Positions 11,191-34,036 of a stretch of 64,000 nucleotides of DNA are shown here, one piece after another (positions within the stretch are counted from its first letter, which is position 1; each line of letters begins with the position of its first letter). The DNA lies in NCBI RefSeq assembly GCF_003018235.1, contig NZ_CP027437.1; one strand, written 5' to 3'. Made by a program: the position numbers and the translations under genes. Under the pieces are notes generated by a model, which had not been told where the DNA came from, searched no databases, and saw nothing but the letters and a program-made list of their open reading frames with translations. The stretch comes from Escherichia coli (GTDB lineage Bacteria > Pseudomonadota > Gammaproteobacteria > Enterobacterales > Enterobacteriaceae).

Positions 11191-13986
11191 ATGGAGATAA
11201 TTATGAGAAACCTCTGTTTCTTACTGACGTTAGTGGCAACTCTGTTGCTCCCCGGGCGACTGATTGCCGCCGCCTTACCGCAGGATGAAAAGTTAATTAC
11301 CGGGCAACTGGACAATGGCTTGCGATATATGATTTATCCGCATGCTCAACCAAAGGATCAGGTAAATTTATGGCTGCAAATTCATACGGGTTCATTGCAG
11401 GAAGGAGACAATGAGCGCGGCGTGGCTCATTTTGTAGAACATATGATGTTTAACGGCACAAAAACATGGCCGGGTAATAAAGTCATCGAAACATTTGAGT
11501 CGATGGGTCTGCGCTTTGGTCGCGATGTTAATGCCTATACCAGCTATGACGAAACGGTGTATCAGGTGAGTTTGCCGACTACGCAGAAACAAAATCTGCA
11601 ACAAGTGATGGCAATCTTCAGTGAATGGAGTAATGCCGCAACCTTTGAAAAACTCGAAGTAGACGCTGAACGCGGCGTAATTACTGAGGAATGGCGTGCC
11701 CATCAGGATGCGAAATGGCGCACCTCTCAGGCGCGCCGCCCTTTCCTGCTGGCTAATACCCGTAATTTAGACCGTGAACCTATCGGCCTGATGGATACTG
11801 TCGCTACGGTCACACCGGCACAATTGCGCCAATTTTATCAACGCTGGTATCAACCAAATAATATGACCTTTATCGTGGTCGGCGATATCGATAGTAAAGA
11901 AGCGCTGGCGCTGATTAAGGATAATTTAAGTAAGCTTCCGGCTAACAAAGCAGCTGAAAATCGCGTCTGGCCGACAAAAGCCGAAAACCACCTGCGCTTT
12001 AATATCATTAATGATAAAGAAAACCGGGTGAACGGCATCGCACTCTATTATCGCCTGCCAATGGTGCAAGTGAGCGATGAGCAAAGCTTTATCGAACAAG
12101 CTGAATGGAGCATGTTGGTTCAGCTGTTCAATCAGCGTCTGCAGGAACGCATACAGTCGGGCGAGTTGAAGACTATTTCTGGCGGCACTGCGCGCAGCGT
12201 TAAAATTGCACCCGATTATCAGTCGCTGTTTTTCCGTGTAAATGCACGAGACGATAATATGCAGGATGCTGCGAATGCATTAATGGCAGAGTTGGCAACT
12301 ATTGATCAGCATGGTTTTTCTGCTGAAGAACTCGATGATGTCAAATCTACCCGTCTCACCTGGCTGAAAAATGCGGTTGATCAGCAAGCTGAACGTGATT
12401 TACGTATGCTGACCAGTCGCCTGGCATCCAGCTCATTAAATAATACGCCGTTCTTGTCGCCGGAAGAGACATATCAACTTTCGAAACGTCTGTGGCAGCA
12501 AATTACCGTGCAAAGTCTGGCGGAAAAATGGCAGCAGTTAAGAAAGAACCAGGATGCATTTTGGGAGCAAATGGTAAACAATGAGGTTGCTGCCAAAAAC
12601 GCATTGTCTCCTGCGGCTATCCTGGCGCTGGAAAAAGAGTACGCCAACAAAAAGCTGGCGGCTTACATCTTCCCAGGCAGAAATTTATCGTTAACAGTAG
12701 ACGCTGACACACAGGCGGAAATTAGCAGCAAAGAAACGCTGGCTGAGAATCTGACATCATTAACACTTTCCAATGGTGCCAGGGTTATTCTGGCAAAATC
12801 CGCGGGTGAAGAGCAAAAACTACAAATTACTGCCGTATCTAATAAAGGCGATTTAAGTTTCCCTGCGCAGCAAAAATCACTTATCGCGCTGGCAAATAAA
12901 GCAGTAAGCGGAAGCGGCGTTGGTGAACTCTCCTCTTCCAGCCTGAAACGCTGGAGTGCGGAAAACTCGGTAACCATGAGCAGTAAAGTCAGTGGCATGA
13001 ATACATTGCTCTCTGTTAGCACGCGGACTAATAACCCTGAACCTGGTTTCCAGTTGATTAACCAGCGAATCACCCACAGCACGATTAACGATAATATTTG
13101 GGCATCGCTACAAAATGCTCAAATTCAGGCGTTGAAAACGCTCGACCAGCGTCCAGCGGAGAAATTCGCCCAGCAGATGTATGAGACGCGCTATGCTGAT
13201 GACCGCACGAAATTACTGCAAGAAAATCAGATTGCACAGTTTACTGCCGCAGATGCGCTGGCTGCCGATCGCCAGTTGTTTTCATCTCCAGCGGATATCA
13301 CGTTTGTCATTGTCGGTAATGTCGCAGAAGACAAACTCCTGCCGTTAATTACGCGTTACTTAGGATCAATCAAACACTCTGATTCGCCATTAGCCGCAGG
13401 TAAACCATTAACTCGCGCGACGGACAACGCATCGGTTGCTGTAAAAGAACAAAATGAACCTGTGGCACAGGTTTCACAGTGGAAGCGTTATGATTCCCGG
13501 ACACCTGTAAATCTGGAGACGCGTATGGCGCTCGATGCTTTTAACGTCGCACTGGCAAAAGATCTACGCGTTAATATTCGTGAACAGGCATCTGGAGCAT
13601 ACAGCGTTTCTTCTCGCCTCTCGGTTGATCCTCAGGCCAAAGATATCAGTCATTTGCTGGCTTTTACTTGTCAACCGGAACGACATGATGAACTGTTAAC
13701 GTTAGCGAATGAAGTGATGGTTAAACGTCTGGCTAAAGGGATCAGTGAGCAAGAACTGAACGAATACCAGCAAAACGTTCAGCGCAGCCTCGATATCCAA
13801 CAGCGTAGCGTTCAACAATTAGCGAACACCATTGTAAATAGTCTTATTCAATATGACGATCCTGCAGCATGGACTGAGCAGGAGCAATTGTTGAAACAAA
13901 TGACGGTAGAGAATGTTAACACTACCGTTAAACAATATCTTTCTCATCCGGTAAATACTTATACCGGAGTATTATTGCCAAAATAA
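11191..13986 (+). CDS. pqqL: Periplasmic M16-family zinc metalloprotease PqqL
   Basis: Inverted zinc-binding motif HxxEH (HFVEH) in the N-terminal domain; signal peptide; start taken at ATG 11191 (MEIIMRNL...) to give 931 aa. Confidence 0.9.
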   Translation: MEIIMRNLCFLLTLVATLLLPGRLIAAALPQDEKLITGQLDNGLRYMIYPHAQPKDQVNLWLQIHTGSLQEGDNERGVAHFVEHMMFNGTKTWPGNKVIETFESMGLRFGRDVNAYTSYDETVYQVSLPTTQKQNLQQVMAIFSEWSNAATFEKLEVDAERGVITEEWRAHQDAKWRTSQARRPFLLANTRNLDREPIGLMDTVATVTPAQLRQFYQRWYQPNNMTFIVVGDIDSKEALALIKDNLSKLPANKAAENRVWPTKAENHLRFNIINDKENRVNGIALYYRLPMVQVSDEQSFIEQAEWSMLVQLFNQRLQERIQSGELKTISGGTARSVKIAPDYQSLFFRVNARDDNMQDAANALMAELATIDQHGFSAEELDDVKSTRLTWLKNAVDQQAERDLRMLTSRLASSSLNNTPFLSPEETYQLSKRLWQQITVQSLAEKWQQLRKNQDAFWEQMVNNEVAAKNALSPAAILALEKEYANKKLAAYIFPGRNLSLTVDADTQAEISSKETLAENLTSLTLSNGARVILAKSAGEEQKLQITAVSNKGDLSFPAQQKSLIALANKAVSGSGVGELSSSSLKRWSAENSVTMSSKVSGMNTLLSVSTRTNNPEPGFQLINQRITHSTINDNIWASLQNAQIQALKTLDQRPAEKFAQQMYETRYADDRTKLLQENQIAQFTAADALAADRQLFSSPADITFVIVGNVAEDKLLPLITRYLGSIKHSDSPLAAGKPLTRATDNASVAVKEQNEPVAQVSQWKRYDSRTPVNLETRMALDAFNVALAKDLRVNIREQASGAYSVSSRLSVDPQAKDISHLLAFTCQPERHDELLTLANEVMVKRLAKGISEQELNEYQQNVQRSLDIQQRSVQQLANTIVNSLIQYDDPAAWTEQEQLLKQMTVENVNTTVKQYLSHPVNTYTGVLLPK

Positions 13987-14248
13987 TAACAGCCCCGTCA
14001 ACACATCGTTGGCGGGGATTTTATCAATATTCGCTATTTTTATGTAATAATTTTATAAATGCGTTCAAAATAATAACCAAGTACTAATAGTGATATTTTA
14101 AGGTCTGATTTTTACGTGATAATTCAGGAGGCGTAGAAAGTGCATAAAAATAACAGCATAAAACACCTTGCCACCACCCAAGAATTCAATAATGTATTGA
14201 TTTTCAATGATAAAATATTATTCGCATAATATCTCACGATAAATAACA

Positions 14249-14268
14249 TTAGGATTTTGTTATTTAAA
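14249..14268 (+). promoter_or_regulatory. GAD box (GadE/GadX-binding 20-mer TTAGGATTTTGTTATTTAAA) upstream of gadB
   Basis: Exact 20-nt gad-box sequence present about 80-100 bp upstream of the gadB start. Confidence 0.7.
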
Positions 14269-14347
14269 CACGAGTCCTTTGCACTTGCTTACTTTATCGA
14301 TAAATCCTACTTTTTTAATGCGATCCAATCATTTTAAGGAGTTTAAA

Positions 14348-15748
14348 ATGGATAAGAAGCAAGTAACGGATTTAAGGTCGGAACTACTCGATTCACGTTT
14401 TGGTGCGAAGTCTATTTCCACTATCGCAGAATCAAAACGATTTCCGCTGCACGAAATGCGCGATGATGTCGCATTCCAGATTATCAATGACGAATTATAT
14501 CTTGATGGCAACGCTCGTCAGAACCTGGCCACTTTCTGCCAGACCTGGGACGACGAAAATGTCCACAAGTTGATGGATTTATCCATTAACAAAAACTGGA
14601 TCGACAAAGAAGAATATCCGCAATCCGCAGCCATCGACCTGCGTTGCGTAAACATGGTTGCCGATCTGTGGCATGCGCCTGCGCCGAAAAATGGTCAGGC
14701 CGTTGGCACCAACACCATTGGTTCTTCCGAGGCCTGTATGCTCGGCGGGATGGCGATGAAATGGCGTTGGCGCAAGCGTATGGAAGCTGCAGGCAAACCA
14801 ACGGATAAACCAAACCTGGTGTGCGGTCCGGTGCAAATCTGCTGGCATAAATTCGCCCGCTACTGGGATGTGGAGCTGCGTGAGATCCCTATGCGCCCCG
14901 GTCAGTTGTTTATGGACCCGAAACGCATGATTGAAGCCTGCGACGAAAACACCATCGGCGTGGTGCCGACTTTCGGCGTGACCTACACCGGTAACTATGA
15001 GTTCCCGCAACCGCTGCACGATGCGCTGGATAAATTCCAGGCCGACACCGGTATCGACATCGACATGCACATCGACGCCGCCAGCGGTGGCTTCCTGGCA
15101 CCGTTCGTCGCCCCGGATATCGTCTGGGACTTCCGCCTGCCGCGTGTGAAATCGATCAGTGCTTCAGGCCATAAATTCGGTCTGGCTCCGCTGGGCTGCG
15201 GCTGGGTTATCTGGCGTGATGAAGAAGCGCTGCCGCAGGAACTGGTGTTCAACGTTGACTATCTCGGTGGTCAGATTGGGACTTTCGCCATCAACTTCTC
15301 CCGCCCGGCGGGTCAGGTGATTGCACAGTACTATGAATTCCTGCGCCTCGGTCGTGAAGGCTATACCAAAGTACAGAACGCCTCTTACCAGGTTGCCGCT
15401 TATCTGGCGGATGAAATCGCCAAACTGGGGCCGTATGAGTTCATCTGTACCGGTCGCCCGGACGAAGGCATCCCGGCGGTTTGCTTCAAACTGAAAGATG
15501 GTGAAGATCCGGGATACACCCTGTACGACCTCTCTGAACGTCTGCGTCTGCGCGGCTGGCAGGTTCCGGCCTTCACTCTCGGCGGTGAAGCCACCGACAT
15601 CGTGGTGATGCGCATTATGTGTCGTCGCGGCTTCGAAATGGACTTTGCTGAACTGTTGCTGGAAGACTACAAAGCCTCCCTGAAATATCTCAGCGATCAC
15701 CCGAAACTGCAGGGTATTGCCCAGCAGAACAGCTTTAAACATACCTGA
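14348..15748 (+). CDS. gadB: Glutamate decarboxylase beta (PLP-dependent)
   Basis: 466-aa product from ATG 14348 ([19 protein letters not shown]...); PLP-lysine motif [10 protein letters not shown]. Confidence 0.95.
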
Positions 15749-15768
15749 TAACGTTTAACGGTAACGGT

Positions 15769-15798
15769 GTCCCGAAACACACCCGTTTCGGGACAATT
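15769..15798 (+). terminator. Perfect 10-bp stem-loop (gtcccgaaac / gtttcgggac) in the gadB-gadC intergenic region
   Basis: Read directly; a second hairpin (gttctgaa-tacgc-ttcagaac) lies at 15838..15858; likely mRNA stabiliser or partial terminator within the gadBC operon. Confidence 0.45.
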
Positions 15799-15903
15799 TC
15801 CAAAGTCTGTTCACTGGCATTAGCAACGGAAAATATTGTTCTGAATACGCTTCAGAACAAAACAGGTTCGGTTCCGACAGGAATACCGTTTTAGGGGGAT
15901 AAT

Positions 15904-17439
15904 ATGGCTACATCAGTACAGACAGGTAAAGCTAAGCAGCTCACATTACTCGGATTTTTTGCCATAACGGCATCGATGGTAATGGCTGTTTATGAATACC
16001 CTACCTTCGCAACATCGGGCTTTTCATTAGTCTTCTTCCTGCTATTAGGCGGGATTTTATGGTTTATTCCCGTGGGACTTTGTGCTGCGGAAATGGCCAC
16101 CGTCGACGGCTGGGAAGAAGGTGGTGTCTTCGCCTGGGTATCAAATACTCTGGGGCCGAGATGGGGATTTGCAGCGATCTCATTTGGCTATCTGCAAATC
16201 GCCATTGGTTTTATTCCGATGCTCTATTTCGTGTTAGGGGCACTCTCCTACATCCTGAAATGGCCAGCGCTGAATGAAGACCCCATTACCAAAACTATTG
16301 CAGCACTCATCATTCTTTGGGCGCTGGCATTAACGCAGTTTGGTGGCACGAAATACACGGCGCGAATTGCTAAAGTTGGCTTCTTCGCCGGTATCCTGTT
16401 ACCTGCATTTATTTTGATCGCATTAGCGGCTATTTATTTGCACTCCGGTGCCCCCGTTGCTATCGAAATTGATTCGAAGACCTTCTTCCCTGACTTCTCT
16501 AAAGTGGGCACCCTGGTTGTATTTGTTGCCTTCATTTTGAGTTATATGGGGGTAGAAGCATCTGCAACCCACGTCAATGAAATGAGCAACCCAGGGCGCG
16601 ACTATCCACTGGCTATGTTACTGCTGATGGTGGCGGCAATCTGCTTAAGCTCTGTTGGCGGTTTGTCTATTGCGATGGTCATTCCGGGTAATGAAATCAA
16701 CCTCTCCGCAGGTGTAATGCAAACCTTTACCGTTCTGATGTCCCATGTGGCACCGGAAATTGAGTGGACGGTTCGCGTGATCTCCGCACTGCTGTTACTG
16801 GGTGTTCTGGCGGAAATCGCCTCCTGGATTGTTGGTCCTTCTCGCGGGATGTATGTCACAGCGCAGAAAAACCTGCTGCCAGCGGCATTCGCTAAAATGA
16901 ACAAAAATGGCGTACCGGTAACGCTGGTCATTTCGCAGCTGGTGATTACTTCTATCGCGTTGATCATCCTCACCAATACCGGTGGCGGTAACAACATGTC
17001 CTTCCTGATCGCACTGGCGCTGACGGTGGTGATTTATCTGTGTGCTTATTTCATGCTGTTTATTGGCTACATTGTGTTGGTTCTTAAACATCCTGACTTA
17101 AAACGCACATTTAATATCCCTGGTGGTAAAGGGGTGAAACTGGTCGTGGCTGTTGTCGGTCTGCTGACTTCAATTATGGCGTTTATTGTTTCCTTCCTGC
17201 CGCCGGATAACATCCAGGGTGACTCTACCGATATGTATGTTGAATTACTGTTCGTGAGTTTCCTGGTGGTACTTGCCCTGCCCTTTATTCTCTATGCTGT
17301 TCATGATCGTAAAGGCAAAGCGAATACCGGCGTCACTCTGGAGCCAATCAACAGTAAGAACGCACCAAAAGGTCACTTCTTCCTGCACCCGCGTGCACGT
17401 TCACCACACTATATTGTGATGAATGACAAGAAACACTAA
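15904..17439 (+). CDS. gadC: Glutamate:GABA antiporter (APC family)
   Basis: 511-aa polytopic membrane protein recognised as GadC. Confidence 0.95.
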
Positions 17440-17464
17440 CCATGTCTGAATGGTTATAAGACAA

Positions 17465-17493
17465 GGGAACGATAATTCATCGCTCCCTTTTTC
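17465..17493 (+). terminator. Rho-independent terminator after gadC (gggaacgat-aattc-atcgctccc + TTTTT)
   Basis: Stem-loop with one mismatch followed by T-tract. Confidence 0.6.
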
Positions 17494-17569
17494 GTGCTTG
17501 CTGTCGTATTGACTTAACCGGGATAAGTACGAGAATGAGCGCACATCTGTTTACCGGAAACCAGCACAT

Positions 17570-18889
17570 ATGGATATCTGCTCCCGAAACGAGAAATTAG
17601 CGATTAGAAGACCAGCGATACTGGTTGCACTGGCACTTTTACTGTGTAGTTGTAAAAGCACGCCTCCAGAGTCCATGGTGACACCACCAGCGGGTTCAAA
17701 GCCACCAGCCACGACGCAACAATCGTCACAACCGATGCGTGGCATCTGGCTGGCCACGGTGTCTCGCCTCGACTGGCCACCGGTTTCCTCGATTAACATT
17801 AGTAACCCCACCAGCCGGGCCCGTGTACAACAACAGGCGATGATTGACAAACTGGATCATCTGCAACGTCTCGGCATAAACACGGTCTTTTTCCAGGTCA
17901 AGCCGGACGGTACCGCCCTGTGGCCATCAAAAATTTTGCCGTGGTCCGATCTTATGACCGGAAAGATTGGTGAAAATCCAGGTTACGATCCGCTGCAATT
18001 TATGCTCGACGAAGCCCACAAGCGTGGGATGAAAGTACACGCCTGGTTTAACCCCTATCGCGTATCGGTTAATACGAAGCCCGGTACTATCAGGGAACTG
18101 AATAGCACTCTGGCTCAACAACCAGCGAGCGTCTATGTGCAACACCGCGACTGGATCAGAACGTCCGGCGATCGCTTTGTCCTCGACCCGGGCATCCCTG
18201 AAGTTCAGGACTGGATCACATCAATAGTCGCGGAAGTGGTTTCCCGCTATCCGGTAGATGGCGTGCAGTTTGACGACTATTTCTATACTGAGTCACCGGG
18301 TTCACGGCTAAATGATAACGAAACGTACCGCAAATACGGAGGCGCATTTGCGTCAAAAGCAGACTGGCGGCGCAACAATACTCAGCAGTTAATTGCGAAG
18401 GTATCGCACACCATTAAAAGCATTAAGCCGGAAGTCGAATTTGGCGTTAGCCCGGCAGGCGTGTGGCGTAACCGATCACACGATCCGCTCGGTTCCGATA
18501 CCCGAGGCGCGGCAGCCTATGACGAATCCTACGCTGACACCCGTCGATGGGTGGAACAAGGATTGCTGGATTACATTGCTCCCCAAATTTACTGGCCGTT
18601 CTCACGGAGTGCCGCACGTTATGACGTTTTGGCAAAATGGTGGGCAGATGTCGTTAAACCGACCAGGACCCGCCTGTATATCGGTATCGCCTTCTATAAA
18701 GTGGGTGAACCTTCAAAGATAGAGCCAGACTGGATGATTAACGGCGGCGTACCGGAACTGAAAAAACAGCTCGATCTTAACGATGCCGTGCCAGAAATTA
18801 GCGGCACAATCTTGTTCCGTGAGGACTATCTGAATAAGCCACAGACTCAACAAGCGGTCAGCTATCTGCAAAGTCGTTGGGGCAGTTAA
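17570..18889 (+). CDS. yddW: Lipoprotein YddW/DigH, glycoside-hydrolase-like
   Basis: 439-aa ORF with lipobox (LLLCSCK); recognised as YddW. Confidence 0.88.
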   Translation: MDICSRNEKLAIRRPAILVALALLLCSCKSTPPESMVTPPAGSKPPATTQQSSQPMRGIWLATVSRLDWPPVSSINISNPTSRARVQQQAMIDKLDHLQRLGINTVFFQVKPDGTALWPSKILPWSDLMTGKIGENPGYDPLQFMLDEAHKRGMKVHAWFNPYRVSVNTKPGTIRELNSTLAQQPASVYVQHRDWIRTSGDRFVLDPGIPEVQDWITSIVAEVVSRYPVDGVQFDDYFYTESPGSRLNDNETYRKYGGAFASKADWRRNNTQQLIAKVSHTIKSIKPEVEFGVSPAGVWRNRSHDPLGSDTRGAAAYDESYADTRRWVEQGLLDYIAPQIYWPFSRSAARYDVLAKWWADVVKPTRTRLYIGIAFYKVGEPSKIEPDWMINGGVPELKKQLDLNDAVPEISGTILFREDYLNKPQTQQAVSYLQSRWGS

Positions 18890-30578: not shown

Positions 30579-30734
30579 TTCATAACCATCAGTCCTCAAT
30601 GACGATTAAACACCATTGCCTGCGCAATGGTGTTTTTGTTTTTATCTGCTTTATACTTGGGGCCGACGCCCTGGCGGTAAAGCAAAGACGATAAAAGCGT
30701 GCCAGGGATGGATATTCAAAAAAGAGTGAGTGAC

Positions 30735-34006: not shown

Positions 34007-34036
34007 AAAAATGGCGCTTCTTAAAGCGCCATTTTC
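34004..34036. terminator. Bidirectional rho-independent terminator between convergent yddM and fdnI
   Basis: aaaaaaatggcgctt-ctta-aagcgccatttt hairpin flanked by A/T runs on both sides. Confidence 0.65.

Follow-up and report, generated by a model that had tools for sequence, protein, structure and literature searches.

The locus considered here raises the question of what two strong hairpins do in the short spacer between gadB and gadC of Escherichia coli. The main system by which E. coli survives extreme acid consists of GadB and GadC, which are also a source of bacterial GABA in the gut, and the literature searched treats gadBC regulation as a matter of the promoter. The original prediction held that the hairpins may act as a partial terminator or RNase barrier setting the GadB:GadC ratio. 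The window, i.e., the whole stretch of 64,000 nucleotides that was analyzed, is part of the E. coli chromosome and carries pqqL (ending at 13986), gadB, the spacer, gadC, and digH (from 17570) in this order on the + strand. According to the list of open reading frames and the RefSeq annotation under the match, the gadB coding sequence (glutamate decarboxylase B) spans 14348–15748 and ends with a TGA stop codon followed by an in-frame TAA, and the gadC coding sequence (glutamate:GABA antiporter) spans 15904–17439 with its ATG at 15904. The spacer between them is 155 nt long (15749–15903, + strand) and includes the gadC ribosome binding site (AGGGGGA, 15893–15899, + strand), recognized from the sequence and unpaired in the predicted folds. 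Both genes lie on the + strand and are annotated likewise in E. coli K-12 and in thousands of RefSeq genomes.

At ≥97% identity, 5,405 of 5,426 complete E. coli genomes contain the spacer. It is single-copy: even sensitive blastn places it only once per genome in 5,407 E. coli genomes, which excludes a repeat element (REP, BIME, or ERIC). Similarity between gadA and gadB stops ~4 nt past the stop codon; therefore, the spacer and its hairpins are specific to gadB-gadC, and a shared origin of the hairpins with gadA was likewise discarded. The alignment between the window and K-12 is gap-free, with window position p corresponding to NC_000913.3 1570644-(p-15749), and the sole differences within the spacer are two bases in the loop of the first hairpin and T15868G. 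Position 15868 is G in K-12, in all other E. coli alleles examined, and in most Escherichia alleles compared, and C in L004 and L006 (L numbers denote loci), so that the T of the window is a rare allele just 3' of the second hairpin. The loop allele of the first hairpin in the window (ACACCC) is a minority allele; the window spacer has matches of ≥99% identity in only 230 of 5,408 records. Draft and metagenome contigs frequently stop within or just before gadB (loci L002–L005 and L083–L094); the spacer often falls at a contig edge, likely because the gadA/gadB duplication breaks assemblies.

Both stems lie where the original prediction had located them, with gtcccgaaac (15769–15778) facing gtttcgggac (15785–15794) and gttctgaa (15838–15845) facing ttcagaac (15851–15858), and both extend further. 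The first hairpin, HP1 (15768–15795, + strand), is a perfect 11-bp stem (arms 15768–15778 and 15785–15795) with six G-C pairs among the 11 and a 6-nt loop (15779–15784), and it starts 20 nt past the gadB stop codon. The second, HP2 (15836–15860, + strand), is a perfect, A+U-rich 10-bp stem (arms 15836–15845 and 15851–15860) with a 5-nt loop (15846–15850). Folded as + strand RNA, HP1 reaches -17.7 to -18.9 kcal/mol (z -4.1) and HP2 -10.9 kcal/mol (z -5.5), with none of 200 shuffles as good in either case, and the whole spacer folds at -48.3 kcal/mol (z -3.8), indicating more structure than in its shuffles. Perfect inverted repeats with arms of ≥10 bp and loops of 3–8 nt occur six times in the 64-kb window, and two of the six lie within the 155-nt spacer, as compared with a chance expectation of 0.55 per 64 kb (dinucleotide shuffles of the window) or ~0.001 per 155 nt. 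The other four such repeats are located at 2199–2229, 30608–30635, 34008–34035, and 57481–57510. A third, short hairpin in the gadC leader (HP3, GUUCC-GACA-GGAAU; 15871–15884, + strand) appears in both the MFE and the consensus folds; its UCC/GGA core is conserved, and three of its five pairs are invariant in pair counts. Rfam 15 covariance models run over 13800–18000 gave no match within the spacer at E-values up to 10.

Comparison within Escherichia was based on a small sample of nine distinct alleles, consisting of the window, K-12, four other Escherichia species or clades, E. albertii, and one divergent metagenome allele. In HP1, four of the 11 pairs are changed on both sides with pairing kept, mainly in E. 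albertii and L005; for instance, UGUCCCGAAAC/GUUUCGGGACA is replaced by a GCCCCGGG/CCCGGGGC stem in E. albertii. G.U pairs that function only on the + strand are present in the HP1 of L005, L006, and L082. For the four-helix structure of the spacer, 93–95% of cells are paired (95% for HP1 alone) compared with 35–50% when the partner is slid by 1–3 columns, and the number of pairs changed on both sides (five in the four-helix structure) was matched by one of 500 shuffles. RNAalifold recovers HP1 unaided. By contrast with the stem, the HP1 loop differs in all eight of its alignment columns. The same division is seen within E. coli, where the window and six other alleles (K-12 and five RefSeq strains) differ at five spacer sites, three in the HP1 loop (15779, 15780, and 15782), one in the HP2 loop (15850), and 15868, with no polymorphism in the stems. 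The pairing of HP1 is thus well supported as being under selection, and HP1 as a functional RNA hairpin on the gadBC strand.

Several other features of the spacer were considered and set aside. A long-range helix that would close the spacer (15762–15767 with 15885–15890) shows no compensatory change and is dropped by RNAalifold, and three of its pairs are each broken in one allele (E. albertii or L005). An 18-codon open reading frame on the + strand, starting from GTG at 15767, is broken in E. albertii and was taken as a chance occurrence. On the - strand, a 21-codon open reading frame (MPVNRLWKLSRNGCVSGHRYR) runs from 15820 down to 15755, antisense across HP1, and lacks a ribosome binding site; it is probably not a gene, its conservation being explained by the conserved DNA. 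For an internal gadC promoter, the only match of the scan (9/12, at 15874–15903) would place the start site inside gadC, and the term ‘gadCp’ found in the literature searched is a primer name for the gadBC promoter and does not denote an internal promoter.

An RNA 3' end has already been mapped at HP1. In the Term-seq data for MG1655 grown in M63 glucose to OD 0.4, a 3' end is listed at NC_000913.3 1570594(-) with 33,817 reads and the class ‘orphan’, with the printed sequence ...GTCCCGAAACGAACCCGTTTCGGGACAATT[T]CCAAAGTCTG (Adams et al., 2021, PMC7815308, Supplementary file 1). Through the gap-free alignment, this end corresponds to window position 15799, the last U of AAUUU, 4 nt past the HP1 stem, where it closes an AUUU tail (15796–15799, + strand). 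Term-seq mapping had been put forward as a check on the hairpins, and for HP1 it returned an abundant end at the foot of the stem, which shows that a gadB-only RNA end exists there. The tables list no 3' end after HP2, nor any on the opposite strand within the spacer interval (PMC7815308), and HP2 is therefore left without support as a terminator or barrier; the proposed role as a partial terminator or RNase barrier accordingly holds for HP1 and not for HP2. The end at 15799 is present in one of three Term-seq conditions (M63 at OD 0.4) and absent from LB at OD 0.4 and OD 2.0, and neither this end nor the gadC terminator end at 1568900(-) appears in the two LB sheets (PMC7815308). In the M63 glucose sheet, the gadC terminator end has 70,553 reads (PMC7815308), although read counts are not stoichiometries, so that 33,817 versus 70,553 does not demonstrate a drop in gadC RNA. 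The Rho table of the same study has no entry at HP1; it derives from LB at OD 0.5, where gadBC expression is expected to be low. Other tables of RNA 3' and 5' ends that were consulted likewise contain no entry for the site. One RNA-seq study reported parallel fold-changes for gadB (2.13) and gadC (2.27), which agree with co-transcription and co-regulation and yield no ratio between the two. No paper discussing the gadB-gadC hairpins, or tying the 15799 end to them, was found in the literature searched, and what is new here is the proposed link of this published ‘orphan’ end to HP1 and to gadBC expression.

Hairpins at the same place recur in other genera. A search for GadC in one genome per species yielded 80 loci, most with gadB directly upstream; these loci are partly related to each other. 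When each of the 51 non-Escherichia gadB-gadC spacers of ≥60 nt was compared with its own dinucleotide shuffles, 38 proved to contain a hairpin that is stronger than in 95% of them, and 23 contain one at p ≤ 0.005. Same-length controls were significant in 7 of 48 segments upstream of gadB and in 1 of 48 inside gadB. These hairpins start at a median of 19 nt past the gadB stop codon with a median energy of -19.4 kcal/mol, close to the values for E. coli HP1 (20 nt and -18.9 kcal/mol). Neither blastn-short nor an nhmmer profile found homology to the E. coli spacer outside Escherichia; the other hairpins are thus analogous and not homologous, and the shared feature is positional and structural. 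The hairpin is common and not universal, since about ten operons have very short spacers (19–58 nt), in most of which a hairpin is slight or absent. That many genera carry unrelated hairpins at this position suggests that the proposed uncoupling of gadB and gadC is a general design feature of gadBC operons, and this recurrence, together with the nearly invariant sequence between HP1 and HP2 described below, is a modest addition to knowledge of the operon. Hafnia alvei (L010) and Izhakiella capsodis (L073) share a similar long hairpin of the CAGCTGCCCTTTC...GAGAGGGTAATTG type, which is located at +73 to +135 of the spacer and not right past the stop codon.

Taken with the preceding results, this recurrence bears on the simplest alternative, that the hairpins are chance or neutral palindromes devoid of function. 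No direct functional experiment on them was found, which leaves room for such a reading. However, the two palindromes far exceed chance expectation for a spacer of this length, their stems are conserved while the loops vary, and HP1 combines compensatory changes with a mapped 3' end at its foot and counterparts in other genera. A chance origin is very unlikely, to the point of being negligible.

A more serious alternative is that HP1 is a weak (leaky) intrinsic terminator, at which a fraction of the polymerases would be released at AAUUU and gadC transcription would be lowered relative to gadB. HP1 does have the stable, G+C-containing stem-loop of an intrinsic terminator, and the mapped end falls on the last U of AAUUU. 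In some genera (e.g., L009, L056, and L058), moreover, the equivalent hairpin is followed by a full U-run (7 U in 8 nt). However, HP1 lacks the U-rich tract of ~7–8 nt, as just three of the 8 nt in its tail (AUUUCCAA) are U. HP1 has a tail score of 0.9–1.5, compared with 2.2 for the pqqL terminator and 4.0 for the gadC terminator in the same window, and HP1 was not called by a simple terminator scan. The classical terminator discriminant, which gives values below 0 for true terminators, is uncalibrated with modern energies and was used for ranking only. The U-run is also not conserved in Escherichia, where the tail reads AAUUUCC, AAUUCC, AAAUUCC, GCAUUCC, or AAACUCC; E. albertii has lost it (AAACUCC) and other Escherichia have a shorter one, whereas the stem is kept by compensatory change. 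The RNA end itself lies merely 4 nt from the stem. In the other genera, the 8 nt after the hairpin contain ≥5 U in 8 of the 51 spacers and ≤3 U in 35. We consider leaky termination possible but rather unlikely as the main role of HP1. A barrier is favored over partial termination because the U-run of HP1 is poor and unconserved, and together with the scarcity of U-rich tails in other genera, the conserved role looks like that of a stem-loop that defines a 3' end and blocks exonucleases. HP1 may also be a weak terminator in E. coli, which would not be exclusive of a barrier role.

Stem-loops of this kind are known from E. coli. Dar and Sorek (2018, PMC6061677) described U-poor, stable stem-loops with a steady-state 3' end directly downstream and interpreted them as blocks to PNPase and RNase II after downstream termination or cleavage. 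HP1 resembles this class in having a stable stem with a 3' end directly past it, no U-rich tract, and a mild excess of C over G in the sequence just downstream (C/G of 1.25–1.27 in the first 78-nt windows), but differs in lying between two genes of one operon and not at the end of a transcription unit. The same authors noted that such stem-loops can turn into intrinsic terminators by gaining U's (PMC6061677). This switch of mode through U content fits the mixed picture of U tails across genera, and it is also a point in favor of leaky termination.

Our preferred reading, which we hold to be fairly likely, is that HP1, as a stem-loop of the gadBC transcript, fixes a stable 3' end for a gadB-only mRNA, such that the gadB part outlives or outnumbers the gadC part. 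The free end could be created by three routes, with RNA polymerase stopping inefficiently just past HP1, Rho stopping RNA polymerase further downstream, or RNase E cutting the single-stranded linker between the hairpins. Whichever the route, 3'-to-5' exonucleases (PNPase and RNase II) would then be halted by the 11-bp stem of HP1, and we propose that the gadB part would outlive or outnumber the gadC part as a result of this block. A single promoter would thereby yield more of the soluble enzyme than of the membrane antiporter, with a corresponding effect on the GadB:GadC protein ratio. Starting 20 nt past the stop codon, HP1 would lie beyond a terminating ribosome, as expected from ribosome footprints in general. 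This spacing, the C-over-G bias, and the RNase E-like motifs of the linker are consistent with a barrier and do not constitute proof of it. Data from exonuclease, RNase E, or Rho mutants at the HP1 site were not found in the literature searched. If the proposal is true, a 3'-end-defining hairpin adds a post-transcriptional layer that sets the amount of transporter per enzyme; the practical consequences would be modest, concerning operon engineering for GABA production and the interpretation of gadB versus gadC expression data.

Similar arrangements exist in other operons. The REP/BIME between malE and malF is an intercistronic stabilizing palindrome that protects the upstream, highly expressed message for a soluble protein, so that this protein and the membrane transporter are expressed unequally. 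The role of BIMEs is stated in PMC9023263. HP1 is comparable in being a stem-loop between co-transcribed genes for a soluble protein and a membrane transporter, with stabilization expected here by analogy, but is single-copy, unlike REP/BIME elements, which occur in many copies. With leaky intra-operon terminators, HP1 shares a hairpin soon past the stop codon and a 3' end in a short U-run, and some gadBC operons of other genera, having a full hairpin and U-run, look like such terminators; unlike them, HP1 has a tail of 3 U that is unconserved and escapes the simple scan. In the puf operon of Rhodobacter and papBA of E. coli, hairpins flank an endonuclease-sensitive spacer, and the transcript segments differ in half-life. 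The linker between HP1 and HP2 is likewise flanked by hairpins, with its candidate cleavage sites known as pattern matches to the RNase E motif only.

The remainder of the spacer is also under constraint. The linker between the hairpins (15800–15835, + strand) is unpaired in the centroid fold, and no other part of the spacer is as conserved: only 3 of 34 columns vary across Escherichia. For comparison, gadC diverges from the window at 30–39% of its fourfold-degenerate sites in all but one of the seven other Escherichia lineages compared, the exception being L003 (10%). No single fold or known motif accounts for this invariance. Pattern matches to the RNase E-like motif RN|WUU predict cuts in the linker after 15818 and 15834. 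The HP2 stem is also conserved, with one or two differences in 20 nt across Escherichia and a variable loop. Its pair 15839/15857 is U-A in E. coli and L003, C-G in L005, U.G in L002, and a C.A mismatch in four alleles, and the HP2 of E. albertii contains two mismatches. HP2 is therefore real, constrained, and not a chance structure, but it is less well supported as a hairpin than HP1, since its one compensated pair is the same pair that is mismatched in four alleles and a rival helix involving the linker fits equally well.

This rival helix emerges from RNAalifold, which swaps HP2 for an interrupted 19-pair helix between ~15798–15822 of the linker region and ~15834–15857. In the alternative helix, 97.7% of cells are paired, with six one-sided changes that preserve pairing and no change on both sides. 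The predicted energies for HP2 and the alternative are -15.2 and -9.5 kcal/mol in E. coli and -13.8 and -15.4 kcal/mol in Escherichia whittamii; HP2 is favored in E. coli, L002, and L005, and the alternative is equal or favored in E. whittamii, L082, L006, and E. albertii. The linker and HP2 could accordingly form a two-state gadC leader, adopting either HP2 or the longer imperfect helix, through which gadC processing or expression would be controlled independently of gadB. Such a leader would be in keeping with the near-invariance of the linker despite the synonymous divergence of gadC in all lineages but one, with the preference of RNAalifold for the alternative helix, and with the flip in predicted preference between lineages. 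On the other hand, the alternative helix is weak, interrupted, and free of compensation on both sides, and transitions keep its pairing by default because the fixed partners of the variable bases are G or U. In addition, the ribosome binding site is untouched in both folds, and no ligand, sRNA, or protein partner is known. A two-state leader is consequently quite improbable in our estimate.

A further possibility is that HP2 works on the opposite strand, where it could terminate antisense transcription, or that a regulator recognizes its palindrome as DNA. Read on the - strand, the stem is followed by TATTTTCC / UAUUUUCC and is flagged by the simple scan, the C.A mismatch of the four Escherichia alleles becomes a G.U pair, and the stem sequence is conserved beyond what pairing needs. 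Against this, the Term-seq tables list no antisense 3' end here, the only entry whose K-12 coordinate begins with 15705 being on the gadBC strand, and the U.G pair of L002 works on the + strand only. The tail and hairpin scores on the - strand are low, no known operator motif is matched, and the literature searched describes no promoter or binding site at this place. We therefore regard an opposite-strand function as highly improbable. More generally, no RNA end, promoter, binding site, or sRNA contact was found for the linker and HP2 stretch in the literature searched. Resemblances to CsrA, GcvB, TorR-box, and GAD-box sites were not convincing; E. albertii lacks the GGA of the linker. Positions 15808–15815 of the linker (CTGTTCAC) resemble the TorR box CTGTTCATAT, and TorR is an annotated regulator of acid-resistance operons.

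As a best guess from structure and conservation, HP2 would be a structural element of the gadC leader. It may lie at or near the 5' end of a processed gadC RNA, given that a cut at the AU|AUU motif would fall one nucleotide before its stem. On a broader and speculative reading, to which we give a low probability, the ~100 nt from the HP1 tail to the gadC start would be an Escherichia-specific regulatory leader, in which a fold switch between linker and HP2, or recognition by an sRNA, a protein, or RNase E, sets gadC independently of gadB, with HP1, linker, and HP2 forming a processing cassette. If this were true, the operon transcript would be split into separately stabilized gadB and gadC messages.

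The neighboring genes show some further features. The operon ends with an intrinsic terminator after gadC (17465–17492, + strand), a hairpin followed by TTTTT that is identified by sequence, by scores, and by the K-12 Term-seq end at 1568900(-), which falls in the T-run after a counterpart hairpin with one different stem position. In the window, the stem at 17465–17487 reads GGGAACG...CGCTCCC with an A.C mismatch, whereas K-12 has GGGAGCG and a perfect 7-bp stem; the operon terminator hairpin is accordingly weaker here (-8.3 kcal/mol). A 9-mer of the HP1 5' arm, TCCCGAAAC, is repeated at 17582–17590, inside the start of digH, and the identity reaches 11 nt with the K-12 loop allele; this is probably a chance match. 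E. coli GadC is 68–81% identical to its proteobacterial relatives and GadB only 51–63% (non-Escherichia gadBC loci L008–L073). Transporters are not usually better conserved than the soluble enzymes they work with, and the difference may stem from a different history of the Escherichia gadA/gadB lineage.
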